From Lophium mytilinum (lineage: Eukaryota), in NCBI GenBank assembly GCA_010093605.1, contig MU004194.1, forward strand, positions 1,154,323-1,218,322: a stretch of DNA of 64,000 bases, written 5' to 3'. The notes beneath the pieces were generated by a model. It worked only from the letters and a program-made list of their open reading frames with translations, did not search any database and was not told the origin of the DNA. Positions 1 through 62,620 of the stretch are shown in pieces; position 1 is the stretch's first letter, and every line of letters starts with the position of its first letter. The position numbers and the translations under genes are program-made.

Positions 1-3000
1 ATCATGGACCACAATTTGGCTGATTACATCACCTCGAAGAACAACGTCCAGCTCAACTACAAGGACATGAACCATACAAATAGCTATGGCATGATTCGAG
101 GCTTGCAGTTCTCGGCCTTTGTATTCCAGTACTACGGCTTGGTCATCGATCTACTTCTGCTTGGTCTGCAGCGTGCAAGCGAGATTGCTGGTCCACCACA
201 AAGCCCCAACGACTTCCTTCAGTTCCGTGATCGTCCGACTGAGACTAGGCACCCTATTCGACTCTATACTAGGTATATTGATCGCATCTGGGTCTTCTTC
301 AGGTTCTCCGCAGATGAGTCTCGGGATCTCATCCAGCGATTCCTGACCGAGCAGCCCGATCCCAACTTTGAGAATGTCATCGGATATCGGAACAAGAAGT
401 GCTGGCCCCGAGACTCAAGAATGCGTCTGATGCGTCACGACGTCAACCTCGGTCGTGCTGTTTTCTGGGATATGAAGAATCGCCTCCCCCGGTCCGTCAC
501 CACAATTGATTGGGACGACACTTTTGCCAGTGTCTACAGCCGCGACAATCCAAATCTCTTATTCTCGATGTGTGGATTTGAGGTCCGAATTCTTCCTAAG
601 ATTCGCAATCTCACCGAGGAGTTCCCGGTCAAAGACAGCGTGTGGTCGCTTGTAGACAATACCTCCAAGGAACGAACCGCGCATGCCTTCTTGCAAGTCA
701 CTGAAGAAGACATTCAAAAGTTCAACAACCGCATTCGTCAAATCCTGATGTCCTCTGGCTCGACGACATTCACGAAGATAGCCAACAAGTGGAACACCAG
801 CCTGATCGCGCTCTTTACCTATTATCGTGAAGCAGCTGTCTCAACGATCAATCTGCTTGATACTATTGTTAAGTGCGAAACCAAAATTCAGACTAGGGTG
901 AAGATTGGGTTGAACTCTAAGATGCCTTCTCGTTTCCCTCCTGCTGTTTTCTACACGCCCAAGGAACTCGGTGGTCTCGGCATGATCTCTGGTTCACATA
1001 TCCTCATTCCCACGAGCGACAAGCGTTGGTCCAAGCAAACCGACACTGGCGTCACGCATTACCGTGCTGGTATGAGCCATGACGAAGAGACCCTCATCCC
1101 CAACATCTTCCGATACATCATTCCCTGGGAGTCTGAGTTCATTGACTCACAGCGTGTCTGGATGGAGTACTCACAGAAGCGTCAAGAAGCTAACCAACAG
1201 AACCGCCGATTGACATTGGAAGATCTTGAGGACAGCTGGGATCGAGGTCTTCCTCGTATCAACACTCTCTTCCAGAAGGATCGAAGCACGCTGAGCTTTG
1301 ACAAGGGCTTCAGAGCTCGAACAGAGTTCAAGACGTATCAGCACATGAAGAGCAATCCCTTCTGGTGGACGAGTCAGCGACATGACGGCAAATTGTGGAA
1401 TTTGAATGCCTACCGAACCGATGTCATTCAAGCGCTTGGAGGTGTGGAGACGATTCTTGAGCATACCTTGTTCAAGGCTACCGCGTTCCCATCCTGGGAG
1501 GGTCTCTTCTGGGAGAAGGTGAGTTCCCTTTTCCTCTCTGTCTGATGTGGCAATGTACTAATTTTTCCCAGGCCTCCGGTTTCGAAGAATCGATGAAGTT
1601 CAAGAAACTCACCAACGCTCAGCGGTCTGGTCTTAACCAGATTCCCAATCGTCGCTTCACTCTTTGGTGGTCGCCTACGATCAATCGTGCTAACGTCTAC
1701 GTTGGTTTCCAGGTGCAGCTTGATTTGACAGGCATCTTCCTTCACGGAAAGATTCCAACTCTCAAGATTTCCCTGATCCAGATTTTCCGCGCCCATTTAT
1801 GGCAGAAGATCCACGAGTCTGTCGTTATGGACTTGTGTCAAGTCTTTGATCAAGAGTTGGATGCACTGGGCATCGAAACCGTCCAGAAGGAAACCATTCA
1901 TCCGAGAAAGTCGTACAAGATGAACAGCTCTTGCGCCGATATCCTGCTCTTTGCTAGCCACAAATGGAGTGTCACCAACCCGTCGCTGCTATACGACACT
2001 AAAGATCAGATGAGCTCCACCACTACCAATAAGTTCTGGGTCGATATTCAGCTTCGATATGGTGACTACGATTCTCACGACATCGAACGATATGTGCGTG
2101 CCAAGTACCTCGATTACACCACTGACAGCATGAGTATCTATCCTTCCGCAACAGGTCTGATGATTGGCATCGATCTCGCCTACAACCTCTACTCTGCATA
2201 TGGGCAGTACTTCCCCGGTCTCAAGCAGCTCGTTCAGCAGGCTATGGCCAAGATCATGAAGGCCAACCCGGCTCTTTATGTGCTGAGGGAACGTATCCGG
2301 AAGGGTCTTCAGCTGTATGCTTCCGAGAACAACCAGGAGTTCCTAAATTCGCAGAATTACTCTGAGCTCTTCAGCAACCAGGTGCAGCTCTTTATCGATG
2401 ACACCAACGTCTATCGTGTTACTATCCATAAAACGTTCGAAGGCAACTTGACCACAAAGCCCATCAACGGTGCAATCTTCATCTTCAACCCCAGGACTGG
2501 ACAGCTCTTCCTCAAGATTATTCACACAAGCGTTTGGGCTGGTCAAAAGCGTCTTGGACAATTGGCTAAATGGAAGACTGCCGAAGAAGTAGCAGCTCTC
2601 ATTCGATCCCTGCCTGTTGAAGAACAGCCCAAGCAGCTCATCGTTACGCGTAAGGGTTTGCTGGATCCTCTGGAAGTTCATTTGCTCGACTTCCCCAACA
2701 TTTCCATTCGCGCCTCCGAATTGCAGCTTCCTTTCCAGGCCGCAATGAAGGTTGAAAAGTTGGGTGATATGATCCTTCGAGCAACTGAGCCTCAGATGGT
2801 GCTTTTCAATCTGTACGACGAGTGGCTCAAAACGATCTCGTCTTACACCGCCTTCTCGCGTCTGATCCTGATTCTGCGCGCCCTTCACGTTAACCAAGAC
2901 AAAACGAAACTGCTGCTCCGTCCGGACAAGACTGTCATCACACAGGAGCATCACATTTGGCCCACACTGTCGGACGAGGACTGGATCAAGGTTGAAGTGC

Positions 3001-4067
3001 AGCTTCGCGATTTGATCTTGAACGATTATGGCAAAAAGAACAACGTCAATGTCTCGTCGCTCACGAGCAGCGAAGTCCGAGACATCATTCTCGGAATGGA
3101 AATTTCTGCTCCTTCCATGCAACGTCAACAAGCTGCGGAAATCGAAAAGCAGCAGGAAGAGCAAGCACAGCTCACAGCTGTGACCACCAAGACACAGAAC
3201 GTGCTTGGCGAGGACATCATTGTCACAACAACTTCGGCGTACGAAACAGCCACCTTCGCCTCAAGGACAGAGTGGCGGACACGTGCAATTGCAACGTCCA
3301 ATCTACGAACGCGCGCGAACAATATCTACATTAACTCAGAAGATGTAAAGGAAGAGAGCCACTTCACCTATGTCATGCCGAAGAACATCCTCAAGCGGTT
3401 CATCACCATTTCAGATCTGCGCGTCCAAGTCGCAGGTTACTTGTATGGTTCCTCGCCACCCGACAACGATCAGGTGAAGGAGATACGCACTATCGTCATG
3501 GTCCCCCAGAGCGGTAACACTCGCGACGTTGGGCTACCACGAGAACTACCCCGACACGAGTATCTTGACAAATTGGAACCGCTTGGTATCATCCATACGG
3601 TCAGCGGTAACGAGCCGCCGTACATGCAAGCCACCGATGTCACTCAGCACGCGAAGATGATGGCGGCGCACCCATCCTGGGACAAGAAGACAGTGTCGAT
3701 GACAGTTTCCTTCACGCCGGGCTCTGTGTCTCTTGCAGCATGGGCTTTGACGCCACAGGGCTACAAATGGGGAGCGGACAACAAGGACATAATGTCGGAC
3801 AGCCCAGCCGGGTTCTCAACAGCCTTTGGCGACAAGTGCCAGCTCCTGTTGAGTGACAAGATCCGGGGTTACTTCCTGGTGCCGGAGGCGAACATCTGGA
3901 ACTACTCATTCATTGGTGCCAGCTTTGGCAACGTGGAGAAGAAGCCAGTTTGGGTGAAGTTGGATACGCCAGCGAGGTTCTATGACGCGATTCATCGGCC
4001 GCAGCATTTCCACAACTTCGCGGAGTTGGAGGATTTGTGGGTTGATAGGGAGAATCAGTTTGAGTGA
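1..4067 (+). CDS. PRP8: Pre-mRNA splicing factor Prp8, 5'-truncated by the window; exons <1-1518 and 1572-4067
   Basis: Prp8 motifs [40 protein letters not shown], RNaseH-like [11 protein letters not shown] and a C-terminal Jab1/MPN-like domain. 53-bp phase-0 intron 1519-1571 (GTGAGT...TACTAAT...CCCAG). Confidence 0.99.
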
Positions 4068-5765: not shown

Positions 5766-6829
5766 ATGCTGATCACCATGATAATTCGGACATCGCTGCT
5801 GCTGTCGCTGCTCGTCGCCCTCGCTGCACTGGTGCATGCCGTCCCAACCCTCCGGAGACGAGACGCCGATATTGAGAGCCTCTATGGCATCACCGCTCTG
5901 AGGCAAGACCACAGCGGCAAGCGTGGTGACAACAAGCAGAAATACTTTCACGAATCCACCGTGAGTTCCTCGTTATACTTATACGTAGCGCTGCCTGACT
6001 GACCTGAGCTGACCGCCGCAGTTCCACCCCCACTATGATGGCCGCTTCGCCGAGAAGGTCCTGTCCTACGACGACCGCCGCGCCAACCTAGTCGTGTTGA
6101 TGAAGACCTACCTGTCCGCGATGCACGAAATCGGGACCGAGACGTGGATAATGCATGGCTCTCTGCTGGGCTGGTGGTGGAACCGCAAGATCATGCCGTG
6201 GGACTCGGACGTCGACGTGCAGGTCTCAGAGGCCGGCATGGACTTCTTGGCCGCCTACCACAACATGACCATTCACCACTACCAGCTCCCTGGCGAGGCC
6301 AAAGGGCGAGACTACATGCTCGAAATCAATCCCCACTATGTCAACGGCTCGACGGCCGACAGGTTGAACGTGATTGATGCGCGGTGGATTGACACGCATA
6401 CCGGCTTGTTCATCGATATCACGGCGCTGAGGCGGGATAAGGAAGCCGAGGCTGAGGGCAAGATGGGCGTCATGATGTGCAAAGACAGGCATCGTTATGA
6501 GGAAGCGCAGATTTTCCCGCTCAGGGATAGCTTTTTCGAGGGCATACCGGTCAAGATTCCGTATGCGTATGCGGAGTTGCTGGAGGAGGAGTATGGGAAG
6601 AAAGCATTGACGAGGATAAATTATCAGAAGCATCACTTCGATGAGGAGAAGATGGAGTGGATACCGCTGAAGTAAGCTCTGCCCACTTTTGACATTTGAT
6701 CGTGGAGATACTGACCAACCTTGCAGAGGCGCCAAAGACGAATCAAAGAAAAAGCCACGGCCTCTGAACCCAAAGCTTAGAATCAGACCCGGAGGTGGGG
6801 GCAGTGGGAGCTCGGTTGGGACTCTGTGA
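5766..6829 (+). CDS. LicD/fukutin-family phosphotransferase (Mnn4-like, putative mannosylphosphorylation protein)
   Basis: Hydrophobic N-terminal signal/anchor; KYFHEST|FHPHYDGRF across intron 5961-6021; HGSLLGWWWN, PWDSDVDVQ, IDARWID and GLFIDIT motifs. Probable second intron 6672-6726; if unspliced the stop is at 6675. Confidence 0.9.
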
Positions 6830-28792: not shown

Positions 28793-30173
28793 GATGATGC
28801 TGGAGAGTGAGGGGTTGCAGCTACGGGTGTTTGTGCAATGAAACAGGTAGGCTTGTCAAGGAAGATAGTGAAGCTGGTGAGCTGTGATTGAGTGTGATGG
28901 AGCAAGGTGCAGCAGATTCAGGCACAGCAGCGGGAGTGGTAGAAGAAGAAGGAGAGAGAGTGGACAGGAGATGAGATGAGGGGTCGATGATGGCGTTACA
29001 ATCACGAGACCTGACCTGAGGGCACCTGAGCATCCGCAGAGCCCGGCCGAATCGGTCTTGAAGCATGGACGGCGGCCCGTGCATCATTTGTGGAACAAAG
29101 AATCAGGCATGGAATCACATTAAATGGAACTCTCGCTTAGTAAACCGAGCCCCAACGTTATGAATTTTCCTGTGCTCCAGCATTTATTAAATTTTCTGAA
29201 ATTAAAGGGAGCTATAAGCGGGTGCTAGGAGACCACAGCGTAATTATTTCAAGTTATGCATCCTATATTGCGTGGTTGAAAGGTACCAAAAGTATTTCAC
29301 TGCCCCCAATTTTGGAGAGTTCCATTTAATCTGATTCCATGCCTGGAATGCGGGGGAGGAGCGATCGACCGCTGGCCGCATTAGGGGCCCGCGGGCATAT
29401 AAAACTGCCTAATGTCCAATATCCAGGTGCCACTTTGAGGCGAACTCCTAGCCACCCACGACCCCTTGATCATCAAGTGGCAGTCCATGAAAGCTTGCAA
29501 AGTTCAGTCTCACAGCTTCAGATTCATGGTACACACTGTCCTTGGGCTTGCGCTCATCTGCCTAGCACTACTTTAGTTTTTCTGACACCCCATTGAGAAC
29601 TGCAAAGCGAGAATGTTGGCCGAGTCTCTTAGCACCCCAGACGGTGTTGGACTGCGACCTTGCGTTCAACAGACCCCTTCTCAACTACCAGAAAAGATCT
29701 GCTCAACCATAATATCATATCTTCTTACTATGTAAAAGCGCCACTTTAATCGTTTTGTATCGAGTTCTGCTGTTTGTTTCACTCGCAACAAGTGCTGTGC
29801 CACTCCCAGTGCCATGTTTGCTACCGACCTCCTATTGACGCAAACACCGCCATCTCAAATGTGGCACTTTGCAGCTTCAGAGTATGTCTTTCGTCTTCTG
29901 ATACCAGAGCTCTATTTCCTGTCAGCTGCCGTTCATAAGTAGACGGTTTCTCCGACTATCTCGTCCTTGGCCCCGGAAAGGCCCTTTCTCCGCATCCGAC
30001 CGCCGGCACTCGGGTTTATATCTGCCTTTTCTGTCCAAACGTCGTACACTTGAAACCCCCATCCTTCCCCAAGTCGTTGGATGCTAACGTATATCAGCCA
30101 TGCTTAGACGTCCCTTTTATCGCCTGTCCCAGCCATCCTAAAGTCTTCATAAGCCCACTATCACCAATCCATC

Positions 30174-30999
30174 ATGACGGACTCTTACAGCGGCAAAACA
30201 GTCGTCGTGACAGGTGCTGCAGGTGGCCTTGGCCGCGCTATTGCACAGGCCTTCCTGTCAGCCTCTGCAAACGTGGTCCTCGTCGACGTCAACCCAGCTC
30301 GACTTACAGCGTGTTCTTCCGAGCTCAGTACCTCGTATCCTGGCCATGTACACGCCCTCCAAGTAAACATCACGGACGAAAGTGCCGTAGAAGAGATGAT
30401 CAATACTGTCGTTAGCAAGTACTCAACTCTGGACGTGCTAGTGAACAACGCCGGCATCATGGATCACTACGATCCAGTGGGCAGCCTGGAGAAAGCCATA
30501 TGGGACAGAGTTATAGCCGTGAATCTCACTGCACCAATGCTCACGAGTAAGTATGCGGTGAAGCAGTTCCTGGAACAAGAGCAAGGAGGCGCCATCTTGA
30601 ACGTGTCTAGCACATCTGCGTTGAAGGGTTTCATTGCAGGTGCGTACTTGACCCTCCAAGTCAAAATTGTAATAGCCTTACAAAGCCACAGGTGCGGCAT
30701 ACACAGCAAGTAAGCATGGCATTATAGGTCTCACCAAAAACACCGCAGTGTTTTATGCCAAGAAAAACATCAGGTGTAGCGCCATACTGCCGGGGTATAT
30801 GCAGACAAATGTCGGAGACGCTTTTTCGGACGGGATGTGCGAAGAGGGCTACGACATGATGGACAAGGCAAGAGCGTTTGGAGTAGACGCGTGCGAACTT
30901 AGTAAGGTGGCCGAAACGGTGCTTTACCTATGCTCTCAAGCTGGGAGCATATGCAACGGAGCTTGTGTGACTGTTGATAATGCATGGGGAGCCTGGTAG
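30174..30999 (+). CDS. Short-chain dehydrogenase/reductase
   Basis: TGAAGGLG, NNAGIMD, AYTASKHG after intron 30640-30691. Confidence 0.93.
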
Positions 31000-31099
31000 T
31001 TCCACAATGCCCCTCGTGGGACAACGTAGAAGAGAAAAGATGGAAAGTTAAAACCGGAATAGAGATGAAATACTTATTTGCAGACTAGTGCTACAAGAA

Positions 31100-31395
31100 G
31101 GGCCCCCTTTTACTAAACATCTAATGCCGTACTTCTATATGAACAGCCCCCACTAAACCCCTTTATTGTGTACTAATTGGCCCGCTTTACAGGCAGTTTA
31201 TTGTAAAATATGGTACATTTACCTAAAAGCATGTAATTAAAAACACTGTAGGTAGCCTTTTATAAGAAGGATAGTGCAATTAAGATGCCCTTAGTAGCTT
31301 TATACCCTATAAGCTAATTAGAGCGCTAATGAGGTTCTAAGGGGAGAATATTATATTTAAAAATATAATACTAGATATATAGTAGAAAGGGTTTA
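31100..31395. mobile_element. MITE-like element with about 85-bp degenerate TIRs
   Basis: 31101-31182 (CCCTTTTACTAAACATCTAATGCCG...CTAATTGGCC) aligns with the reverse complement of 31313-31394; mismatches are mostly RIP-type transitions. Confidence 0.55.
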
Positions 31396-31555
31396 AGTAT
31401 ATACTATTAGTGTATTTATATAAATAAAATAGTTTTACATTATTCTAGCATTCTAGAATAAAAGCTTATAAGAACTTATCTATTATATACTAGAGCTCTA
31501 CTAGAGTTATAAGATTAGTAATAACTAGGGTCTATACTTATATAACACTATACTA

Positions 31556-31583
31556 CTATCTATCTATCTATCTATCTATACTA

Positions 31584-31651
<68 letters not shown>
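31556..31651. repeat. (TATC)n microsatellite
   Basis: Seen directly. Confidence 0.95.
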
Positions 31652-32570
31652 TTACTAACTTTTTAATAAAAAAGAGAGGTCCTATATTTTAACTAACTTA
31701 AAGAGGAGTATATTCTAACTTAATAGTAGTCTCTATTATAATAAGGCTATTAATATTCAGTAGAAGAGCTAATTCTAGACACCTAGAGAGGATATCTAAG
31801 AATTAGGTTTTCTTAGATAGTAGTCTTTAGTATAAAAGTAAGTCTACTCTTTAGTAGCTTTACTAAATAGTAGAATATAATTCCTATTAGATAAGTACTA
31901 GTAAAGTATAATTTTTTAGAATAAACTAAGTTTATTAAGCCTATAGAAAGAGTATAGAAATAGCCCTATACTTATAATGCTAGAATCCTTCTCTATAAGG
32001 AAACTTATATATATCTATTTATATAGATAAAAGAATATATTTATATATTCTACTCTATTTTTAAATATCTACTCTTAGATTTCTATATAGAATATCTATA
32101 TACCTATTAGAGTATTAAATCTAGTAGAATCTCCCCTTTTTAAAGCTTCTTACTATTAAGCTTAGTCCCTCTACTATCTTATTTATTATAAACTTATTAA
32201 ATTGCGCTAAAGTATATTCTTATAGAGTATCTTATACTTTTTCTACTACATTATAGTCTACTAGTTATAGTAGTTAGATAGCTATAGTATATATACTATA
32301 GGCTTAGAGGCTAAAGATAAGAATAAGAATATAATTAATTATATAACTCTACTTAGAATTAGTAGAGAAGTTAAGTAAGTAGATTAAAGCTTATATTCTA
32401 TTATATAGGCTATTTAAAAGGTTAGATAAAGGGTAGAAAGAATATATAACTAACCTCTTATATACTATATAGACTCTCTTATCCTTCTATATAAACTTAA
32501 TGCTAGTTTATAAGAGGGTAGTATAAAATTCTAAAAAACGGGGTATATATTCACTATAACTATTTAAACC

Positions 32571-32827
32571 TGTAAGGTTTATAATAGTATAAGCGTTATA
32601 TTCTTACGCATAATAGGCTTAAAAGCCTTTAAACGGGACGAAACTGTAAGCGTTTAAACGTAATATAACGAACGTTAGATAACGTTATAAGAATGTTAGA
32701 GAAATATTTTATAATGCATTAAATGCTATATATATACTCCCTTACTATTAATATAGAATAGAACTCAAGTAATATAATTCCTATCTATCTATTTATCTAT
32801 TCTTACATTGACTCTATACCTTTAAGA
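32571..32827 (+). mobile_element. Solo LTR of the Copia element, TSD AAACC
   Basis: Starts TGTAAGG, ends CTCTATACCTTTAAGA; AAACC at 32566-32570 and 32828-32832; matches the LTR at 62268-62407. Confidence 0.9.
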
Positions 32828-33891
32828 AAACCTTACTAAATATAATAAGTTGAAGTTTTTCCTTTTATATTATCTTATTCTGTATTACACTAGGACTCAT
32901 CCGCTACCGCCCGCGGGTTCATCTAGCTAGGGCTCCCCATCCCACCCTAAGACGATGATAAATCAGCTGTTCCCAATAGCTCTTATCGCCAGTGTATTCT
33001 GGAATGAAACCAACTCCCTTTCCTCCAGCACTAACCAGCAGCTGTGCTCTCAACGCAGTTCGCGATTTGCTCCGCAATGAGGCCTACGGCTCTGTCCACA
33101 GCTGTCATATTTGTTCCTTCAAGTTTTCTGGCAATTATGAAGGTCATGCGACATTAGGTCTACGCAGCTCACGTGATCCCGGGCCGAAAGTCCTTCCGTC
33201 GCCCTCTTCTTTCTTCGCAACCTCGTCCACAACAATACAACCTTTTCCCCCGGCTACAAGCTTGATAGTATCTCAGTCCTCAGTAAGGTCCGCAGCAATC
33301 TGTTTTCGTATCCTATCTATTGTAAAATGCGGTCATCCGCAGGTTGCGGCTCTAAGCCGTGACACTCGGGGCTTTTCTTCCTCTCCAACGTCCGGGCCCT
33401 ATCTCCAGCCTCCTCTTCCAGACCTCTTGACAAAGCCGAATGCCCTTTTAGCCACAGGCGCCTCTCGGTTGCTCCTTGCTTCTATCCTGGCAGCAATGGC
33501 GCCATTATGCAGACGTCTTGTCTCGTGGCCAAAATGCTGCGGGCTTGCCAAGGACGCCTGCAAGGCTGAAAACTATAAACATTAATTGGAGGCTCAAGCC
33601 GGCAAAACTATGCACGGGGTTCTACAAAGGTAAGAAGGCTTGCAGATACGAGGCCTTGACCTATAACAGCTCTTGGACTAAGGGTTGTGGAATCCGAACG
33701 AAAGAGCAATAGAACTGCGGGCACTGCTACGGAATAGAAATACCGTGTATCCTAAAATAAAAGAGCTGTCGTCCGCTGCACGTTTCTGCTTCAACTCCCG
33801 GTTTTTGCTTGGTCCCACGGTTCGTATCTTGAGCCTGTTCGTAACACCCTTTCAACGGGAACTATCAAAATAATTTCTTTTCGTTTGCAAA

Positions 33892-35401
33892 ATGTCGTTT
33901 TCCAAGCTCCTCCCACTCGTTCTCGCAATAGTCTTGCCTGCAGTGTGTCAAATAGCTATCCAAGAAATTCCCGCATTCATTACACCCGCTCTTGTACCCG
34001 CCTTCGATCTCTTCCCACACGCTTTAGTTCGCCGTGACTGTCCGTCTGGATATGTCACTCATCTTGGTAGGTGCATCTGCAGTTACAAACTTGGAAACCT
34101 TCTAATTACATCATTCTGTAGGTGGATGTTGTCTTGCGACAGTGATTCGAGATTGCGGTAATGGCGTAACCGTTTGCACAGCATCATGTCCTGCTTCAAG
34201 CACCATTGCGTCGGCTGCAGGATCTTGTCCCTCCGGATACCTCCCACATCTAGGTGTGTAACTGGCAATCTTAAGCTACATGACATTGATTAATGGGATT
34301 AACAGGTGGCTGCTGCCTTGCAACTGTATTGAAATATTGCGGCAATGGCATTACTGTATGCACAGCTGCATGTCCCGCCTCATCGACTACAGCTGTGGCC
34401 GATGCAGGCTGTCCTTCCGGTTATTTGACCTACCTAAGTTCGTGTCTCTCTATTCTCTACCTGGCCATTAGTTACTGACTTTTTTGTATCTAGACAGTTG
34501 TTGCCTTGCTCATAGCATCCTCGACTGTGGGCCTTTTGGCACTCTTTGTACAGGACAGTGCCCAGCAACCACCACCGCAGCCATCCTCTCAACCCCAAGC
34601 TCCTCTATCGTTACTCCTAGCCACCAGTTCATTCCGACTCCTACTGTAACGTCTGTTTCCCGTTTCACCTCCCAAACCACGGCTTACAGCCCTTCTGGCT
34701 CTGGTATAGATTCGTCGGCAATCCTATCTATTCTCCAAACTGGAGTGCCGTCATCCGTGCAGGGAAACGCGGCAGCTGCGTGTTTTCTCAACAGCGATTA
34801 TACCTCTTTCTATGCTACTCCATCATGGTACACTGTTCTCCCCGTCTCTGCACAGAGCTACTTCGCATCCGTGAACAGCGGCAACATCGCTGCTTGCACA
34901 GCCACAAAGGCTACCGGTTTTAGTGGCGGTAGCTCCTCTGGACTTACTGCAGGGGATAAAGCTGGGATCGCCATAGGGGCAATAGTAGGGGCTTCTATAT
35001 TAGGACTGTTAGTGTGGCTCTTAATTGCCAAAACCAGCATTTTCGGGGCCTCGAATTCCGCAGCGCCAGCACCAGTGCCAGCATCAAGCTGGAATCCTAC
35101 TGGTTGGAACGGCGTTGTTGGCACCAACCCACGGGGTTGGAACGGAGTAATAGGACAAGGCACAGGTGTTCCGCCCACACATCCGACTGGACAACAATAC
35201 TTTGTGCCAGCTGGTGCGGCGTTCCAAGAAAACAACGACCCGAAAATTGCGTATCCACCACCTCAGCATGGCCAATATCAAGGTCATCACCGACCTAGTG
35301 AAGTTGACGGTCGACAGTCGCACCTACCAGAAGAAGCTCATGGAAATCCTATTTACGAGATGTCAAGTGCCCCATACCACCCAGGTCAGCAGGTGCAATA
35401 G
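33892..35401 (+). CDS. Single-pass cell-surface protein (about 448 aa): signal peptide, three 6-Cys repeats, Ser/Thr stalk, Mid2-like TM helix, cytoplasmic tail
   Basis: Exons 33892-34066, 34122-34253, 34306-34437 and 34494-35401 splice in frame; TM GDKAGIAIGAIVGASILGLLVWLLI. Confidence 0.85.
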
Positions 35402-35548
35402 TAATGAGCCTAGAAATAAAACATTATAGAGACTACTCTTGTCCTTCTCGTTAACATCCTTAATACGAGTTGAAGGAGTAATAGGGCAAGGTTTGACATA
35501 TAATAAGGATATGCAGCAAAGGATTATAGTTTGTTCAGCTATATAGTT

Positions 35549-36380
35549 TTAGCCAATGCTAGGTAGCTAAATCTCTATTACTATTCGGCCAATGCCGTAT
35601 TACTATTTGGCCTACCTTACCCCGGCGGCCTTTTACTATGTTCTAGCTAGCTTACTTAAAGGGTCTACTCTTGCAAAATATAGAAAACTTACCTAGAAGC
35701 TTAACACTAGCCGCCTAAAAAGCCTTAAGTAAATAACTTAGATAAGTTTTTAGCCCTTATAGAAAGTATTGTGTAGTATTATCTAAAGACCTATAGTACT
35801 GTTATAAGATATTATAATAATCTTAATAAAAGCAGTTTATAAATATCTCCAAGCTAAATTTTAGGAAGAATAGTAGATATTGAAGGTATCGGCCTGTGCC
35901 TGTCTGCGCGTTTACTAGCCAGCGGACGGATATGCTCCTCCAACATGGAGGCGAGTCGGGCGCCGCTGAATTTAAGGTGGAAGGTTAGTATAAGAATAGA
36001 TATATAAATAGGTAGATAAATAGGAATTACATTACTTAAGTTCTATTTTACATTAAAGGTATAGAGTTAGTATAAGAATAGATAGATAGATAGTTTATAA
36101 TTATGTTACTTAAGTTCTATTCTATACTAACAGCAATAGACTTATATATATACGCTATTAATGCATTATAAAACGCTTCTCTAACGCTTATTATATCACG
36201 TTTTAAACGCCTATAAATTTTATTCTATTTAAAGGCTCTTTAAGCCTATTATATATAAGAATATAACGCTTACACTAATATAAAGCTTATAGTAAATAGA
36301 TTCTAGGGGCGTAGATAGGCTGCATGTAATATTATCTTAGCTAGATAGTAAGAGGGGGTTAATTATCTAGTATTAGCCAG
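35549..36380. mobile_element. Non-autonomous TIR element (about 75-bp TIRs) with LTR sequence nested inside
   Basis: 35549-35625 (GCCAATGCTAGGTAGCTAAATCTCTATTACTATTCGGCCAA...) aligns with the reverse complement of 36303-36380. Confidence 0.6.
36051..36291 (-). mobile_element. Copia LTR copy (RIP-mutated), preceded by a partial LTR copy at about 35971-36050
   Basis: Reverse complement of the LTR consensus (ATTAAAGGTATAGAG...TAACGCTTACACT...TTATA); no clear TSD. Confidence 0.8.
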
Positions 36381-36469
36381 GTCTTAGTAGGAAAGTAATA
36401 TACTGGTACTACTTGCAGGTACCTAAGTTTAAGCCTAGAGTTAGATAGAATTAGTGGTTAAAAGCTTAT

Positions 36470-36979
36470 TATAAGTTTTGTAGTAGTATAAGCGTTATAT
36501 CCTTATATTAAATAGACTTAAAAGCTATTAAAGAGGAATACTAGAATAATGCATCTTAATAGCTTATTCTTAGTAGCTCTTCTAGACCTACTATATCTCC
36601 CCCGCAGTAAAACGTAATAGAGAAGGACGCTTAACGCCGAATACAATAGAGGCCAAAATTTTCACCCAAGCGCTGCCCGGCAGCAAACGGTTTCCCCTTG
36701 TAAATTAACCTAGATAGAACGGCTGCATGAACCCTAACGGGAGCTACACCAGCGTGATATAATTCAATAATAATAATATTAATAAGGAATAAAACTATAA
36801 CCTTATGAAAGTAATACAAGGATTGTTAGATAATATTAGAAGAACTTTAGAGAAGTGTTTTACAATGCATTAAATAATATAGATATTTAGCACTGAATGC
36901 TATTAGTATATAATATAACTTAAGTGTATTTTCTATATATCTATCTATCTATTCTTATACTAACTCTATACCTTTAACC
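36470..36979 (+). mobile_element. Copia LTR interrupted by about 280 bp of foreign sequence
   Basis: LTR 5' part 36470-36540 and 3' part about 36824-36979; CTTAT at 36465-36469 and 36981-36985 (near-TSD, 1 nt offset). Confidence 0.65.
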
Positions 36980-37040
36980 TCTTATTGGAAGTAATCCCTT
37001 ATAAAACCTAATAATATCTATTTTTCTACCTATTTCTCCA

Positions 37041-37188
37041 TCTATCTATATATCTATATCTATATATCTATATATCTATCTATCTATATAGCTATCTATC
37101 TATCTATATATCTATATCTATATATCTATATATCTATCTATCTATATAGCTATCTATCTATCTATATATCTATATCTATCTATCTATA

Positions 37189-37235
<47 letters not shown>
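37041..37235. repeat. Compound (TATC)n/(TA)n microsatellite
   Basis: Seen directly. Confidence 0.95.
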
Positions 37236-37569
37236 ACAAGATAATAGAAATAAGAAAGTAAGAAGTTGGCCTACTAGTTAAGCTGTTAGGCTCTTAGAAT
37301 ATAATATCTATTAGTAGAGAAGGGCTATAGTAAAGTATTTTACTCTTAGAGGTAGATATAGATACTACTAAACTACCTACTATTAGGCTTTTAGTACAAA
37401 ATAGATAGGAAGATAAGGGTTCTATACTATAGGCTTATTTTCTTTATTAAGATAGTATATAAACGCTTTTTAAAGAAGAGTTTTAATATATAAGTAGATA
37501 AATCTTCCCTAAATATACTCTAATTTCTTAGTAATTTAGTATATATAACTCTTTCTATTGGTCTCTATT

Positions 37570-37806
37570 TGTAAATTCTATAACAGTATAAGCGTTATGT
37601 CCTTACGCATAATAGGCTTAAAAGCCTTTAAACGGAACAGAACCGTGAGCGTTTGAACGTGATACAACAAACGTTAGAGAAACGTTTTACAATGCATTAA
37701 ATGCTGTATATATAATTCCGTTGCTGTCAATGTAGAATAGAACTCAAGCAATACAATTCCTATCTATCTATCTATCTATTCTCCCATTGACTCTATACCT
37801 TTAACA
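37570..37806 (+). mobile_element. Solo LTR (least mutated full copy), TSD CTATT
   Basis: TG...CA termini intact (TGTAAATTC...CCTTTAACA); CTATT at 37565-37569 and 37807-37811. Confidence 0.92.
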
Positions 37807-37931
37807 CTATTATCTATTATTTTATATCTAGCTTAAGTTTTGTTACTATACTATAAGCTAGAGCCTTTTTATAAGTATAAGAAAGCGCTATTCTATCCCC
37901 TTAATGTATAGGTAGAGGATACTTAATATCT

Positions 37932-38180
37932 TAAGCGTTATATCCTTACGCATAATAAGCTTAAAAGCCTTTAGACGGAATAAACCTGTAAGCGTTCAAA
38001 CATGATATAATAAATTCTAGATAATATTATAAGAACATTTATTAGAGGAGCGTTTTATAATGTATTGAATAGCGTATATATATAACTCCATTGCTGTTAA
38101 TATAGAATAGAACTTGGGTAATATAAATCCTATCTATCTATCTATCTATCTATTCTTATATTAACTCTATACCTTTAATA
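37932..38180 (+). mobile_element. 5'-truncated Copia LTR copy
   Basis: TAAGCGTTATATCCTTACGCATAA...CTCTATACCTTTAATA. Confidence 0.85.
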
Positions 38181-38640
38181 GTAGTAGTAGTTTTCTTAAA
38201 GAAAGTTTAGTATAGGGGAGGTAAGCTATATATCTCTAGAAAGACTAGTATAGAAGATAAAGGCTATAGAAAAACAGAAAGAGCTATAGAGTTTAAGTAT
38301 ATATATTAGTATAGTTACTGCTATATAATCTAGACTTCTAATAGTTTAGTTTCTACTACTATACTATTACCTCTATAATAGTAAATAGACTAATTCTATA
38401 TAAATCTAGTCTTCTAATCTATTTTTAAAAGTATTAAATATAAGTTTGTTTTCTAAGTAAATAGATAGAAAGATATAATAGAAGAAATAAACTTAGTTTT
38501 CTTCTAGTAGTTAACCTCAATTTTCTAGAGGTAATATAGTAGTTTTAAGAAGGTAATTTTCCATATAGTATAGTAATACTGTAGAGATACTTACTTTATA
38601 ACTACTAGTAATATATATATATCTATCTAATATAATTATA

Positions 38641-39335
38641 TCTTAGTTATATTACCTCTAATTATGTTTTTACTTATTAGGTATAAAGCATCTACACAAC
38701 TATCTTATTTAATTATCTAATTGGCTACAGACTTAATAAAGCTGAATAGGGGCTCTACTTTGCCTGCTTCACTCACTCGCTAATTCGAAATGCTCTCTTT
38801 ACAGCACAACCGCCCCTGTGTACAACAAACAAAAGTGATTATACTTGTCCTTGTCCTCCGCGTCCAAGCACAACACACACTACGGCCACTTACACCTGCG
38901 GCTACTACTACTGCTCTTTCTAGGGGTAAGAACCGTGCCCGGCCGCTAGGCCTATAAAGTAGGCGGCGATGGAAGAGGTCGCGGCTTAATTCAGAAGAGC
39001 CCTAAGAAGGTAAGATTTCAACAGCTTTAGCATGCTTATAGGCATATAGGCCCGGCAGCTAGCAATGTAAAAGCGTAAGGATGGTGGAATTAGATCTAAG
39101 GGATGAGCAATAAAACTAATTAAATACAGAGGCTTTTAAGCCTCACAGATAGATAGCCCCATGTACTGCCTCAAGTACGTACGGCATGGATCATGGATGC
39201 ATGTAAAAATCGAGCTCCGGACGAAGCTCTAAGCCGGTTTTGGCCAATCAGAAGATCAGACAAGAGGGTGAGGGTGCAAATACCGAAAAGAAGGGTGTGA
39301 AAATCCAAAAAGAGGGTGTACACCCAGGTATCCGT
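38641..39335. mobile_element. Non-autonomous TIR element with about 95-bp TIRs
   Basis: The left arm ...TCTTATTTAATTATCTAATTGGCTA is a RIP version of the reverse complement of the right arm TGGCCAATCAGAAGATCAGACAAGA... Confidence 0.5.
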
Positions 39336-39569
39336 GCCCTACTTGTACGTGCTATCTGCTTGCATGTTAAATCCTAGAAGCCGCTGTGCTTCCGCCTATT
39401 GCAATGACGCCGTGTCTCGGTTCTGACCAGATGAACGAGAGAAGATATATTAGAAGATAGGTTCAGAAGCTAGAAGTGACCCAATGCCCCCAAACGCCAT
39501 TCCCGTTCTAACCGTAGTCAGAAAACACCTACACCGCACCGCGTAAGCAAGATACGAGCGTAGTCTTGG

Positions 39570-40663
39570 TCAGTCGGCGAGTCTGTATGATCGTTAGTCG
39601 TGTTTTCCTCCCTTAGTCTCCAGCACATCTTACCTATAGCTGACTAGTGTGTCCACACGATGGTTACTCGTGCTGAAGCTCCGCAGCTGTACCTTTTCGC
39701 CATTCTTGATCTCCTTTGCGTCGCTGTCACCCCATTCCAGTGGCACGTCTGAGTCTGCATCTGCATAGACCAGCACGTTGAATGTGCAATTGCCGTCGAG
39801 CATGGGCAAAAATGTGACTGAAGCAGTAATCTGGCGGAAGATAGACTGTATCTCAGCTTGGATCTCCTGCTCGGTCTTCTCAGGGACTGGCTCTCCCGCA
39901 CTAGGTCGACGTCAGAGTTATCGTACACAACCTAAGCTGGCGGTCAATAACTCACTCCGCACCAACGTTCTCTTTGTCCGCTGTTTTCTTCGAAGATTTG
40001 GCCTTTGATGGCTTTCCAAACAATTGAACCTTGCAAAGTTTAGCATGTGGCGCTGTGAAGAGCGTGAGAACCAACATCGAACTGCCACCGTTCCACGTGC
40101 TCGCCAGTTTCTTTACTAGTGATGACAATGACAAGTTTTGAAATCTTTCCACCGTACATCCAATCTTTCAGCTGGGACATGATTTTCTTGATGTAGGCTT
40201 TGACTTGGTCGTCTGCGGTCACTATTGACGATTTAGAAGAGCATCCCTCATCGCGACGAGCGACTTACCCATCATTGTCAAGCCATACTTCTTGACGCTA
40301 TGAGTCGTTTAGTATATATAACAACTATTTTGCTAAAATATGGAGACATACGCAGTGAAATCTTCTGCAGGATACACACCGCGCTGGAACCTGGGACCGG
40401 TCAGCAGGCACGCATTTGAAGTGCAAGCGTTTGACTCACAGAATAGTGTTTATCGAATATTCAAACTAGACATCGTTAGTCTTAGATATGCAAGGCAATT
40501 GGGTGAGCGTTAGGGCCACCTACAAACTCGGATACAACCTTGGAAGACCCTAGAAAGCGTTAGTCAATCCACTCCGGCTCAGTGCAAGGAACGGGGCACC
40601 TTTGAGCGCAAGTTTGTGCACCTTGGAGGAGTCTTTCTTTGAGGAAACCTTTGGTTGCGACAT
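39570..40663 (-). CDS. MAD2: Spindle assembly checkpoint protein Mad2 (HORMA domain), 9 exons
   Basis: [70 protein letters not shown]. Confidence 0.97.
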
Positions 40664-51599: not shown

Positions 51600-52190
51600 T
51601 GGTAAAAAGTATGCAACAGTCAGGTAGTAAAAATAGGAAGGCTATTAGTTCGAGCGCCTTTGCTGCAGAAAGCTGCGATTATTTCGCTTTGTTTATGGAA
51701 ATCAGCCATGTTCTTTGCTCTTTCGTCTCTGGTGCGCTCTCCTCGACTTGTTATATTTGCCAAGGGAGCGCGCCATCATGGTTGATGTTACATAATGGTT
51801 GTTTATAGCATGAGTGGCTCTTCATGACCTCCTGATGATCTGCATACTTGGAAAACTGGGTTCAGTCTGGAGTTGGATGATTATCGATTGGTATCCAATC
51901 AACAGTAGATGAGTGTGAGGGGTACTTGCTTCGAGGAGTCCGTACCGATGACGAATAAATGAATGATTGGTGCAGTAAAATCGAGCGGGCATTAGCATAC
52001 ATATTATCTTGTACGTAGTTGATGGAGAAACGGGCGAAGAAACGCAAAGGGAACCTATAGAATCTTTTAGAACAATTAAGCCATGTGACGCTACTAACGC
52101 TTAAGCATCAGAAAGTATACCAAGTATAGCTTCTTACTCTATAAAATAAAAAAGTATTCATTCTAGCTTACTATACTTTATATAGGCAAT

Positions 52191-53006
52191 TGCTACGTGT
52201 ACGGCCCTTTTTTGGCTGCTTGTACGATGTCTTTTTGATACATGTACGAAACCCCTAGGAGACCTTTCACTGCGTTTTAATTGGCTTGCTTAAAGGCCCG
52301 ACTCCTCCAAAGCCATGAAAGATTTACTTAAAAACTCAACGCGCAGGTACGAGGTTTACAGCCTGCCGCAGCCTTGTAAGGCAGCTCGTGAGGCGGCTAA
52401 TAAGGTATGCGGAGGATCTTGTTGATAAGGACTTCACGTAGTGCTTATAGGGGAGCAGCGATAGAGAGAGGGTTGCTATTAGGTGCAAATCAATGGCTTG
52501 GGCATTCTCCTGGGCTTGTGGGCATGTATGTATGGAGCTATACATATATCTATAGGAATAGGAAGACTATAGATGAAATAGAAAGGCTGCACGTGCAAAT
52601 AGTGAAGGCCCGGCGGAAGTCCCAAGCCCTCCAAGCCAATCAAAACGCTGTGAAAGGGTCTACCAGGATAGGGGGTCGTACGTGCAGCAAAAAGACCTCG
52701 TACAAGCAAAAGAAAGGGGTTGTGTATATATATATAAGGTTTACAATAGCATAAGCGTTATATCCTTACGCATAATAGGCTTAAAAGCTTTTAAACGGGA
52801 CAAAACCATAAGCGTTTAAACGTAATACAACGAACATTAGATAACATTACAAGAACGTTAGAGAATTGTTTTATAATGCATTAAATACTATATATATATA
52901 ATTCTATTACTATTAATATAAAATAGAACTTAAGTAATATAATTCCTATCTATCTATCTATCTATCTAATCTTATATTAACTCTATACCTTAAATAATAT
53001 ATAGCA
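52191..53006. mobile_element. MITE-like element with about 100-bp TIRs; the right terminus is interrupted by a solo LTR
   Basis: 52191-52288 (TGCTTGTACGATGTCTTTTTG...CCTTTCACTGCGTTTTAATTGGCTTG) is closely matched by the reverse complement of 52632-52732; the terminal TAGCA resumes at 53002-53006. Confidence 0.8.
52733..52996 (+). mobile_element. Solo LTR, TSD ATATA
   Basis: TATAAGGTTTACAATAGCATAAGCGTTA...CTCTATACCTTAAATA; ATATA on both sides (low-complexity TSD). Confidence 0.85.
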
Positions 53007-53911
53007 CTAGTCTTTATATAATAGGCTAAATATACTATATAGAGACTCTATATCTATATACCTATTAGAAGAATACTATTAGAAAAATAAGCTACATCTT
53101 ATTAAGGTATATCTCTTTAGCTAGATATTACTAGATATCCTATGTCTTAAGTAAGATAGCTATACCACTCCAGCTACTTAAGAGATTAAGTTAGAGGGTA
53201 AATATATATAGAAAGAATAAAAGATCTCTTTAGTATTTGGAAAAAATAACATTAGAAATATTAGAAGCGCTTCTCTTATTTATCTATCTATCTATTAATC
53301 TATCTATCCCCTTTTCTTTTCTATATACTTATCTATTTACCTATTTATATCCTTTTTCTTTCTATCTACTTATCTATATGACTTTCCAGCTACTATCTCT
53401 TTATAATAGATAGCGGCTAGAGGCTTTAGTAAGTATACATACTATAGAAATGTAATCAGGGGCTAAACTATTTATATAACTTTATTTACTAGAGTATTCA
53501 AGATATTAAAGTAAGCTTGCTAACTTTTACACCTTTTATATATAGTCTTTAATAGTTAACGCTATTTATTTCCTTTTAGGTGTGATTAAATCTGTGCTAA
53601 CCTGGAAGATGGCGCTCTAGTAACTACAGCCTTCTGTTAGCTTGGAGAAATAGACTTGGCTCCGCAGAACCCGGCCTCAAAAGTCACCCATGCGTTCGTT
53701 ACGAGTGACTAGCATATAGGCAAATAACTAATTTACAAAACTGCCGTCTTAATAGATAGCGTTTGATCTATTATTTACCCTGCCAATTCTGCTGCAAAAC
53801 ATTTACATTGGTTAAGAGCTAAAAGAAATATGAATAGCAAGATAATTCCTATTCCTACAAAGGTGACCAGCACCGTCGCTCCTTCAGACATATCTCAAAT
53901 TCCATGGAAAT

Positions 53912-54388
53912 TTAGACCCAAATCATCGACATCGCCTGCCTCTGAGTGGACCGCCTCATCATCCCTCTGCACTCCAGCTTAATAGCATCCGCCTCCGCCT
54001 TTTCCTCGGGGCTTTGTGGTGAGATCGGCATTGGGCCGCTAATTGTCAATCGGTTGATCGTTTGGCCTGTTCCTCTCATCGTGACGACCGTAGCTGGGAA
54101 GTCGGAGGCGGGGTGGTCTATGGCAATCGTGTTCCGGCTCGCCAGCTTCACGGTTGCGTCCTTCCAGTTTTGGCTCTTTCGGCGCTCTTCGGGGCCTGGC
54201 GTGCGCATGGCGCGCTTCTTAGGGAAGAAGCGCTGATACTTGCGCCTCCAAAAACCCCGAGCCTTTCCTCCAGGACGGTTGCTGTTCTGGTTTAGGAGAT
54301 AATCTCTATCGGCTAAAGTGCAGACGGATTGGGAACGTTGATAATGGCCGTCGGACCCTGAGGGCTGCGCGGTCCGTTTGGCAACCAT
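53912..54388 (-). CDS. Hypothetical basic protein, 158 aa
   Basis: ATG in ACC-like context (AACATGG); intronless ORF containing LTISGPMPI; no recognisable domain. Confidence 0.4.
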   Translation of the reverse strand: MVAKRTAQPSGSDGHYQRSQSVCTLADRDYLLNQNSNRPGGKARGFWRRKYQRFFPKKRAMRTPGPEERRKSQNWKDATVKLASRNTIAIDHPASDFPATVVTMRGTGQTINRLTISGPMPISPQSPEEKAEADAIKLECRGMMRRSTQRQAMSMIWV

Positions 54389-59363: not shown

Positions 59364-60339
59364 GGCGTTAGGACCTATACATCTCCTTCTTGGTAGATAC
59401 ACACCACCTTCTTGGTAGTTAGTTACACACCCCCTTTCTTGTCCGATATATTACTTGGCTCCGAGCCCCGGCCTAGGACTCTGGTTCGCTCGCTCGACTT
59501 GTTTACCTAACTAATTCTAAATGCTTTCTCTGAACGCGGCCGTGCATAACACAAGTGTTCTCATTGAATAGCCTCCATTCTTATCCTAAGCCTCAGCCTC
59601 ATCCTTGTCCTGGAGGAAATGAATGGGCGTATTGATCAGGATGGCCAGGGGGGGAAGGGGAGGGGGCGGAGGCAGTGTAGAGGGGAGCCAGGCTCAATGC
59701 GGAGACCCTGTGATAGGGGAAGGTTTTAATTGTGTTAGCATGCTCTTAGGCACTTAGGTATTGTGGTAGTGGAGGGCGGCACAGTCACGGGAGTGAGGAT
59801 CACGATCACTAAAGGGAAGCGAGAATGGGAGAGGATAACCTCACTTGTATTATCAAAGATAAGGCCGTAGCTGGGGTGCTGCCTAGGGCAGACTTTGCAA
59901 GAAGAAGAGATGACAGATGATGAAACGCTGCCCTCCGCGATCAAAAAAGGGCCCAAACGTTCATCATGTGCCGCTTGCATACCTGCGCCAATATATCTCA
60001 CCACAGTATGTAAGAAGCAGATCAATAGCCTATACTTATATATAGTAGGAAATAAGAGCTATATATTATTAAACAGGTAGGCTGCTTAGCCTTATAGATA
60101 CATATAACCTTCTATATATTCTTATATATAGCCTTATATATAAGTATATATAGACTGCAGTAAAAAGAAAGAATATATAATGTAGAGAGGCTAGACAACC
60201 TATAGATGCGCATAAAATAAGTGCTCTAGAGTATCCTCTAAGCCCTCCAAGCGATTAAGAGACTAGATAGAAGGGGAAATATATTTATTATAAAAGGGAT
60301 ATATAACTATTAAAGATAGGGTATATAGGTACTAATGTT
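59364..60339. mobile_element. Non-autonomous TIR element (about 975 bp, about 95-bp TIRs with internal ACACC-CTTCTTGG sub-repeats)
   Basis: Left GGCGTTAGGACCTATACATC...TTACTTGG versus right CCAAG...GTATATAGGTACTAATGTT (RIP-mutated reverse complement). Confidence 0.6.
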
Positions 60340-60616
60340 CTTTTAAGTTACTCTCTTAGAAAACTTTAAGTGCAGTATAGATAGCACTTAGATTATCTAT
60401 AGCCAGTGCTTAGATATACAACTTCTTTTTACTTAATAATAAGTAACTTGTACTGCTTAAGTAGAAATACTAGTATTTAGAGAAGTAGGCTAAATACAAG
60501 TATAGGTCTTTTTAGAAGTATTATATAATAATCATATTGCAAAAAGGGGTAGCACCTTTTTCTATAATTAATAAATAATAAAGGCTATAGTAGTATATAG
60601 ATTAATAGATAAATAA

Positions 60617-60697
<81 letters not shown>
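60617..60697. repeat. (GATA)n microsatellite within the RIP island
   Basis: Seen directly. Confidence 0.95.
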
Positions 60698-62361
60698 CAG
60701 ATTAATAGATGAATAGATATATTAATGCTAGGTATTTCAATATGTTAGTATTCTTTTTGAAAAGAAGAGTAGTAACTACTGAAGCTATGGCTTTAATATT
60801 TCTAGTATATTTTCTAAGTATTCACAAATTTACATATTTCTATCTTAGAATCAAAATAGATTCAAGCTACCTCTAGTAAAAGGGTAAGAGTACCTACTAG
60901 TAATAAGAGGTATAACTTTTATAGCTATAGAGTTACTAGCTCCTATATATAGTAGAGATTATCATATCTTCTAAGATTATAGAAATAGAGCTTTTACTTA
61001 CACCTATTATTTTAAAGTTAAGCCTAAAGGTAGATCCTTATGTACTAACTAGCCTACCTCTTAGCCTAGTAGTAAACTAGTACGCAAGATTATATATACT
61101 TAAGATGGGATATTAATAGCCCTATATTTATAATCTTAGTAAAGTAGTATTAATAGATATTAAAGATGTTAGCTAGATAGCTTTTTATCTATTTGAAATA
61201 TATTTCCTTTAAAGAATACCCACTTAGCTCCCTCTTATAAATTAATTAGTATAGTAATAATAGTAGAAAAGAGTTCTCTTTCCAGCCTTCCTACTCTCAA
61301 TACGCCTTTAGTACGCAGATGCTTTATATCTATTAGACTACTATAGAAGCTAATATAGGGTAAAGTATTTTAAAGTAAGCTATAGGCTATTTTTCTTTCA
61401 AAAAAGAAGAATAAAGAGCTGCTTTATAGATATATATAGCAGCTAGTATAGTATTATATTTCCTATATTAATTATCTATAATCTAATAGTACCCTGTAAT
61501 TTCGCTAGACATAACAAATTAGGGTTATAATTACTCCGAGGATAGTAGAAGAAGGAGTTAGTTAGGTGCCTGGAAATGGGAAACGTCAGACTTGCGTGCA
61601 GCCCAGCACTTTGTCACAGGATGGCACTGTGGGACTTGATTCGTAATTTCGGAGTCTTCCCGGATCAAAGCCGGCATGTTGAGCGAGGTTTAAGCTTGTG
61701 GCACGTCTAGTGTGGCGCTGTGTATGTATTTCAACGGTCGCCGTCTTCTCCAGCATATGCCTCAGGCTCAACCTCATGTAGCGGACTTTCCCGGGGAGAA
61801 GCTCACGGTCCACCATCCGTTGAGCTGCTTTTGGAATTTACCTCTGTCTAGGGCAGCCCTAGCACCGTTGCATCGCTCACCGGACGCCGCCTTGGGCACG
61901 TCGCCGTCCGTATCCACGAATCCCCATCCGTCTGGCGTTTCAATCCAGGCATCATGGCATGCGAGCCCCTCCAACACTGTGGGCTTTGTAGCGGGTTCTT
62001 CGTCTTCTGCCCCTTCTCTGTTAAAAGATGCCCGCAAGGGGGGTCCTCGCAACCTTTGTTTTGGACTTCCCCTTCATCTCACCTTCCGTGGCCGTCAGGC
62101 CACATTTAGGGCTAATTCAGCTCATGCTCATACACAACATTATGTGGAGCCGACCGTTTTTCTGTATGCTGGCGCTAAGCTGGCAAAGTGGGTGTCCGGC
62201 ACGAGCAATCATCGAGGCCCCCCTTGTCGTTAGCATAAACCCACACGTGCATATATACATACCACACTGTCAAAGGTATAGAGTCGATGGGAGAATAGAT
62301 GGATAGATAGATAGGAATTGTATTGCTTTTTTTCTATTCTACATCGACAGCAACGGAGTAT

Positions 62362-62396
62362 NNNNNNNNNNNNNNNNNNNNNNNNNNNNNNNNNNN
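62362..62396. other. Assembly gap (35 N) inside the Copia 3' LTR
   Basis: Run of N. Confidence 1.
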
Positions 62397-62492
62397 TAAT
62401 CCTTACACACTCCCTTAAGCGTTATATGCTTATTTTGTATATTCTTTTTCGAATAGATAGAGAGATAGATAGATAGATAGATAGAGAGATAT

Positions 62493-62530
<38 letters not shown>

Positions 62531-62620
62531 TTTCTTCTTTGCATAGATAGATAGATAGAATCTATGTATCTATGTATTTGCGCAATAGAGTTATATCTAT
62601 GTATCTATGTATCTATATAT

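Follow-up and report, generated by a model that had tools for sequence, protein, structure and literature searches.

Why should the only intron of a gene lie 3 nt from the insertion site of an intein that the gene does not carry? The question is raised by PRP8 of Lophium mytilinum, which occupies the start of a 64,000-nt stretch of DNA (the window) and for which a preliminary description had suggested that the intron may confer immunity to intein invasion. It touches on a broader matter, as the origin of new spliceosomal introns is a long-open question. Here we ask whether the intron is genuine, whether its position is linked to the intein site (PRP8-a, or site a), and whether intron and intein exclude one another. 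Intron positions are given in nt from the site a junction, with negative values upstream.

A single spliced intron beside an empty intein site

The preliminary description had placed a phase-0 intron between a Lys and an Ala codon, and this proved right (Table 1). Seven GT–AG pairs near the site keep the reading frame, but the pair at 1519–1571 alone restores FWEKASGFEE; each of the six others damages the conserved motif and was rejected. Removal of the 53 nt joins Lys1530 to Ala1531 (FWEK/ASGF) and yields a product of 2361 aa that is identical, letter for letter, to the stored protein P0172. The exact 53-nt GT..AG skip is present in contigs from three of four sequencing runs (X3, X4 and X12; the runs are presumed to be of RNA), while the fourth, X7, gave no cover. 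The X3 contig is mRNA-sized, at 7412 nt, and shows no other letter difference from spliced PRP8. These observations confirm a genuine spliced GT–AG intron, which has the GT donor, branch motif, YAG acceptor and restoration of frame on removal of a U2-type spliceosomal intron. From the start codon, 3071 nt before the window begins, the frame stays open to position 1518; the intron is therefore the sole one in the whole ~7.1-kb coding sequence, so that its earlier description as the only intron in 4 kb was correct but understated. A search of the Lophium genome (G000) for near-identical copies of the intron, such as an introner-like element would have, returned the self match alone, by a type of search that cannot establish rarity.

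Table 1. Features of the PRP8 locus around the intron (positions in the window)
Feature	Position	Strand	Basis or remark
PRP8 exon 1, 3' part (codons 1025–1530)	1..1518	+	exon 1 begins 3071 nt upstream of the window; no further intron
Phase-0 spliceosomal intron, 53 nt, 3 nt upstream of PRP8-a	1519..1571	+	
5' splice site GTGAGT after exon end AAG (proto-splice context AAG/G)	1519..1524	+	
In-frame stop codon (TGA) upon intron retention	1543..1545	+	
TACTAAT, which we take to be a branch-point-like motif	1556..1562	+	sequence
3' splice site CAG; AG directly before the Ala codon preserved	1569..1571	+	
Empty PRP8-a insertion site, Ala/Ser codons, junction 1574/1575	1572..1577	+	intein-bearing homologues
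Seven downstream codons of the putative endonuclease target, undisturbed by the intron	1575..1595	+	bound of seven codons per side, as given in PMC3159444
PRP8 exon 2 through the stop codon	1572..4067	+	

Intein-bearing homologues place site a between the Ala and Ser codons, and the Lophium intron consequently lies 3 nt upstream of an empty site, there being no in-frame Cys...His-Asn insert between these two codons. The earlier reading of an intein-free site between EKA and SGF is thus borne out. A search of G000 for an intein or endonuclease, with P0330 as query, gave no intein-like match. A pattern scan of viral contigs gave 0 matches. For one randomly placed intron, the probability of landing within 3 nt of site a is 0.001; for a distance of 20 nt it is 0.006.

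The intron falls inside the putative endonuclease target, for which Barzel et al. give a bound of seven codons per side (PMC3159444). Only 5 of the 18 nt now upstream of the junction match the displaced exon, while the downstream half-site and the AG-GCN junction are intact; from sequence comparison, reduced cutting is plausible. A stronger reading would have the −3 intron abolish cleavage, exclude the intein and owe its fixation to the blocking of homing. Replacement of the upstream half-site favours such complete protection, and the entire downstream half and AG-GCN junction, untouched by the intron, argue against it.

The preliminary description had also allowed that the intron might be a scar of intein loss. 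This fits poorly, because the first codon of exon 2 is the Ala codon that stands before the intein, and on the same geometry decay of an intein into this intron (scenario iii of Monier et al.) was rejected.

Introns cluster at PRP8-a

A pattern scan of metagenome contigs found at least 119 PRP8-like loci, in which introns were mapped by exact splice-site fitting, with a further check of the junctions close to other sites. From these and the window, nine loci that were non-PRP8, pseudogene-like or chimeric were set aside, together with four duplicates, leaving among the matches listed 20 Pezizomycotina-like loci (the window included) and 87 others. The scan motif had to be intact, and introns at −26 to −4 were thereby invisible. 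Among the Pezizomycotina-like loci listed, 13 of 20 carry an intron at −3 to +21, two carry an intein and five have neither at site a; the 13 introns comprise six at −3, three at +4 and one each at −1, +12, +13 and, probably, +15. For the same 20 listed loci, six of the 16 distinct intron positions within 300 nt fall at −3 to +21, as against 0.77 expected (P = 6.5e-5), and 13 of 26 when introns are counted, as against 1.25 expected, for an interval whose bounds were partly chosen after the data had been seen, +21 agreeing with the published bound. The excess is weaker in other eukaryotes, with four of 23 positions in the 87 loci among the matches listed (P = 0.02).

Stored proteins supplied further positions, on the principle that unspliced gene calls run into introns and so expose where these lie. 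Of 455 proteins examined, 147 end early, and many of the early-ending frames are unbroken for more than 1400 codons before stopping at site a, in searches that favoured long frames. Those that have a tail and do not end before codon 1528 form 63 groups, 36 of which end within −9 to +21 (bounds fixed after the data had been seen), at 11 offsets; 30 tail-less proteins were put aside as possible contig ends. Some of the groups that end later are not genuine read-throughs, which biases the count against the hotspot, and one +15 group joins unlike tails. To these offsets, read-throughs at the 5' side add −14 and perhaps −2, and a single call lacking a tail adds +11. Taking loci and protein read-throughs together, introns occupy 14 of 43 possible positions no more than 21 nt from site a, and the Lophium intron proves to be one member of an intron hotspot at this site.

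Could splicing context alone have produced such a cluster? An account with no link to the intein would hold that the intron, whether old or gained independently, sits at a strong proto-splice site, AAG/G, and was retained while others were lost. The K/A position (−3) indeed has the highest proto-splice weight of the positions weighted, 7.7 times the mean, with +4 and +12 next, and the same −3 position is used in L050, a non-fungal, intron-rich locus. Nevertheless, proto-splice weighting lifts the expectation only to 1.0 and the near-site excess persists (P = 3e-4), while −1, +11 and +14 are also used despite their poor context. As the enrichment outlasts the weighting, context explains which positions are used, but not their clustering.

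Introns beside other PRP8 intein sites

If the link with the intein is real, it might extend beyond site a. Inteins were found at two further PRP8 sites in L074 and L079, and two more sites were taken from PMC10710043; six of 89 non-Pezizomycotina intron positions, among the matches listed, lie within 5 nt of these four sites, as compared with 0.9 expected. One locus, L025 (match 2981–3004, + strand), belongs to a non-fungal PRP8 whose site a holds an intein of 586 aa. Each of the five introns seen in this locus is no more than 11 nt from one of five other intein sites, and five further covered sites have no intron; an intein at one site with introns at five others is what complete protection by introns would lead one to expect. 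Since three of these five introns were at known intein sites, further sites were predicted near codons 1334–1343 and 1820, and a search made after the prediction found inteins after codons 1342 and 1824, as well as at seven more sites.

The 12 non-a sites at which PRP8 inteins were seen follow codons 571, 629, 642, 743, 901, 1342, 1482, 1496, 1569, 1618, 1650 and 1824 (Lophium numbering), the carriers being P0469, P0470, P0476, P0489, P0515, P0534, P0550, P0578, L074 and L079, of which P0515 has four. They outnumber the seven PRP8 intein sites listed in PMC6805012, a comparison of totals and not a one-to-one match with its site letters.

At 13 non-a intein sites in eukaryotic PRP8, 12 of 96 intron positions among the matches listed are within 5 nt (2.8 expected) and 24 of 96 within 21 nt (11 expected). 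With positions permuted 10000 times among candidates of like conservation and coverage, neither count was reached, the pools for three sites holding two or three candidates. The seven unpredicted sites on their own are enriched at ±5 nt (5 against 1.4, P = 0.012), with no enrichment at ±12 nt (P = 0.2) or ±21 nt (P = 0.28), and at two of the 13 sites no nearby intron was seen, at low coverage. Some near-site positions are common to several of the loci listed (−1 at site d in five, +113 in three) and may be old. The recurrence of the pattern against conservation-matched controls is hard to reconcile with splicing context alone. Together with the enrichment at site a, it supports, well beyond chance, the link between intron position and homing site that the preliminary description had suggested.

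A second intron cluster, at +90 to +114 in fungal alleles, adjoins the intein site after R1569. The intein there was seen in non-fungal proteins only, and the introns beside it in fungi. We had taken this cluster for the edge of a co-conversion tract, an explanation that was dropped once the intein site after R1569 turned up.

History of the −3 intron

In a tree of 89 rows, Lophium PRP8 groups among Dothideomycetes, adjoining Pleosporales. The −3 carriers in the tree tested are Lophium itself, P0161 (beside Alternaria), L071 and L080, and a single clade of carriers is rejected (AU test, P = 3.8e-58, 29 rows). Both −3 and +4 occur in Pleosporales and again in a clade with Acrodontium and Cryoendolithus, so that the two are interleaved in two orders, and close relatives within Pleosporales vary between −3, +4, +12, +13, +15 and no intron. 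Only 7 nt separate −3 from +4, and no allele was seen with both, from which we infer that at least one was gained repeatedly.

The patchy distribution of −3 would fit repeated gain. Its history may alternatively be that of an old intron with many losses, and mapping on a tree, which the preliminary description had proposed as a check, establishes patchiness outside any single clade while leaving an ancestral intron with many losses compatible with the tree. That compatibility also lends something to the account without an intein link; the repeated origin of −3 or +4 counts against it, as do the enrichment beyond proto-splice weighting and the recurrence at other intein sites, and we regard it as improbable. 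Repeated gain at a site exposed to the endonuclease is the history that we carry forward.

Introns and inteins in the same alleles

Immunity of the kind first suggested predicts that near-site introns and inteins should be mutually exclusive. Three proteins, P0330, P0336 and P0339, have full-length inteins at site a with both LAGLIDADG-type motifs present, and their frames open in non-extein residues that end Q-A-C directly before the intein. These residues, read from the protein alone, point to a −3 intron, with a CAG acceptor and then the Ala codon. P0330 and P0336, which are 60% alike, also end in intron read-through. Full-length inteins would thus stand behind −3 introns in two intein lineages, P0330/P0336 and P0339. 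Among the 17 intein groups in which the 5' junction is visible, a biased sample, four have an intron within 14 nt upstream. Downstream, one +14 read-through is common to the empty P0399 and the occupied P0253, P0390 and P0393. Consistent with this, 11 of the 25 intein rows in Butler et al. (2006) list an intron on the 3' side, that of B. cinerea B05.10 among them; the intein allele of B. cinerea has a 62-bp 3' intron (PMC1508164).

As far as these sequences go, strict intron–intein exclusion at PRP8-a fails, and co-occurrence was one of the outcomes that the preliminary description had named as refuting immunity. The idea survives only in a weaker form, and the best reading is that any protection by the intron would be partial or transient. 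Complete protection retains some points in its favour beyond those given above: the width of the cluster is about that of the endonuclease target, and introns at +4 to +12 occur in 12 empty groups and one intein group, as against eight and 15 for +13 to +21, although lineages were unequally sampled in this comparison. Set against the −3 introns predicted before full-length inteins, the upstream introns of other intein groups, the +14 intron shared by empty and occupied alleles and the undisturbed downstream half-site, these leave it unlikely.

The frequency of co-occurrence suits another account, in which introns arising at a normal rate beside a donor intein are co-converted in homing and outlast the intein with no effect on cleavage. 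S. sclerotiorum, in which an intron lies near the site and from which the intein was reportedly lost with precision (PMC1508164, PMC3158057), could be read in the same way. Such hitchhiking does not account for the narrow peak, within ±5 nt, at several sites, and the +90 to +114 cluster that might have been its conversion tract adjoins an intein site of its own; we consider it very improbable.

Some alleles have features of their own. The frame of P0324 opens with non-intein residues and joins the intein a few codons after its start, which suggests an intron within the first codons of the intein itself. The public gene model of P0169 keeps only the first residues of a mini-intein that P0168, from the same species, shows whole; the model probably treats the intein as an intron. 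The Ser codon after the empty site is AGC in L080, L084, L099, L107 and L113 and TCN in the other empty Pezizomycotina-like loci listed. AGC also follows the intein of L025, and this codon may relate to a reported footprint of past intein occupation.

Discussion

We think it probable that the Lophium intron is an ordinary GT–AG intron that owes its position to conflict with the PRP8 homing endonuclease, and that such protection as it gives is partial or temporary. All of the support for endonuclease-driven intron gain is correlation. In Pezizomycotina, the endonuclease would repeatedly cut empty PRP8-a alleles, homing having been established in Botrytis. As the protein is near-invariant, an intron would be among the few harmless changes that alter the target. 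Introns would then arise and turn over at many positions of the ~40-bp target, preferably at proto-splice sites, K/A being the best. They might do so by insertion during break repair, or because less readily cut alleles have the better chance of transmission, two routes that are inseparable here. Inteins later found beside such introns, −3 included, would reflect either re-invasion or intron gain and co-conversion in occupied alleles.

More tentatively, and with somewhat more doubt than confidence, we propose that PRP8 homing-intein targets may be the main sites of recent spliceosomal intron gain across eukaryotes. Introns would serve there as protein-neutral resistance alleles or arise as repair products, would be overcome and replaced in cycles, and would mark present and past intein sites so closely that these can be predicted, as happened here with two intron clusters.

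We know of no case of intron gain via double-strand-break repair in which the break site is known. PRP8-a would supply one: the nuclease is defined, the protein is near-invariant, and introns occupy 14 positions out of 43 nt. Crosses of B. cinerea gave 100% homing of the PRP8 intein (PMC3158057). Since the PRP8 endonuclease of B. cinerea can be assayed in yeast by a published method (PMC3159444), the effect of an intron at each position on cleavage is directly measurable. Such measurements would also reveal by what means a natural homing drive meets resistance when the protein has no freedom to vary.

The introns of Eupenicillium reportedly lie 13 and 15 nt downstream of PRP8-a, whereas that of Lophium lies 3 nt upstream, and introns at +13 and +15 were here found beside inteins too. 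The two cases have the gene, the intein site and the hypothesis in common, blocking of homing by introns having been proposed for PRP8-a in Eupenicillium (Elleuche et al., 2009, PMID 19253333, as cited in PMC10710043). Butler et al. (2006) scored a near-site intron as present or absent, with neither positions nor an explanation in the accessible text (PMC1508164), whereas here many positions on both sides are resolved. In Bathycoccus, an intron lies at the intein codon of PRP8 site d, and intein-primed intron gain was proposed (Monier et al., 2013, PMC3749507); as presented there, that is one site in one alga with exclusive states, unlike the recurrent positions and co-occurrence at PRP8-a. 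Intron gain as a homing barrier was also put forward for Anaeramoeba paralogues, one intron being 3 nt from its target (Gallot-Lavallee et al., 2023, PMC10710043). These are several instances in other genes and organisms, with no enrichment test in the accessible text; here enrichment was computed. RPA2 of P. nodorum provides another intron adjoining an occupied intein site, with the intron at alignment column 1192 and the intein at 1195 (Goodwin et al., PMC1635734).

Both the immunity idea and a lone near-site intron have precedents in print. In the searchable literature, outside which lie subscription fungal-intein papers and several supplements, we found no description of a hotspot with several positions or of the −3 position, and no test for enrichment. 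Within that scope, three things are new here: the hotspot, its recurrence at further intein sites of PRP8, and the finding that strict exclusion fails.

Neighbouring DNA

Downstream of PRP8, a LicD-family gene (Pfam PF04991) occupies 6013–6675 of the window (+ strand), with an upstream exon near 5780–5960. AT-rich blocks at 30001–40000, 52001–54000 and 60001–64000 have a GC content of 0.29–0.47, in keeping with repeats that repeat-induced point mutation has degraded.
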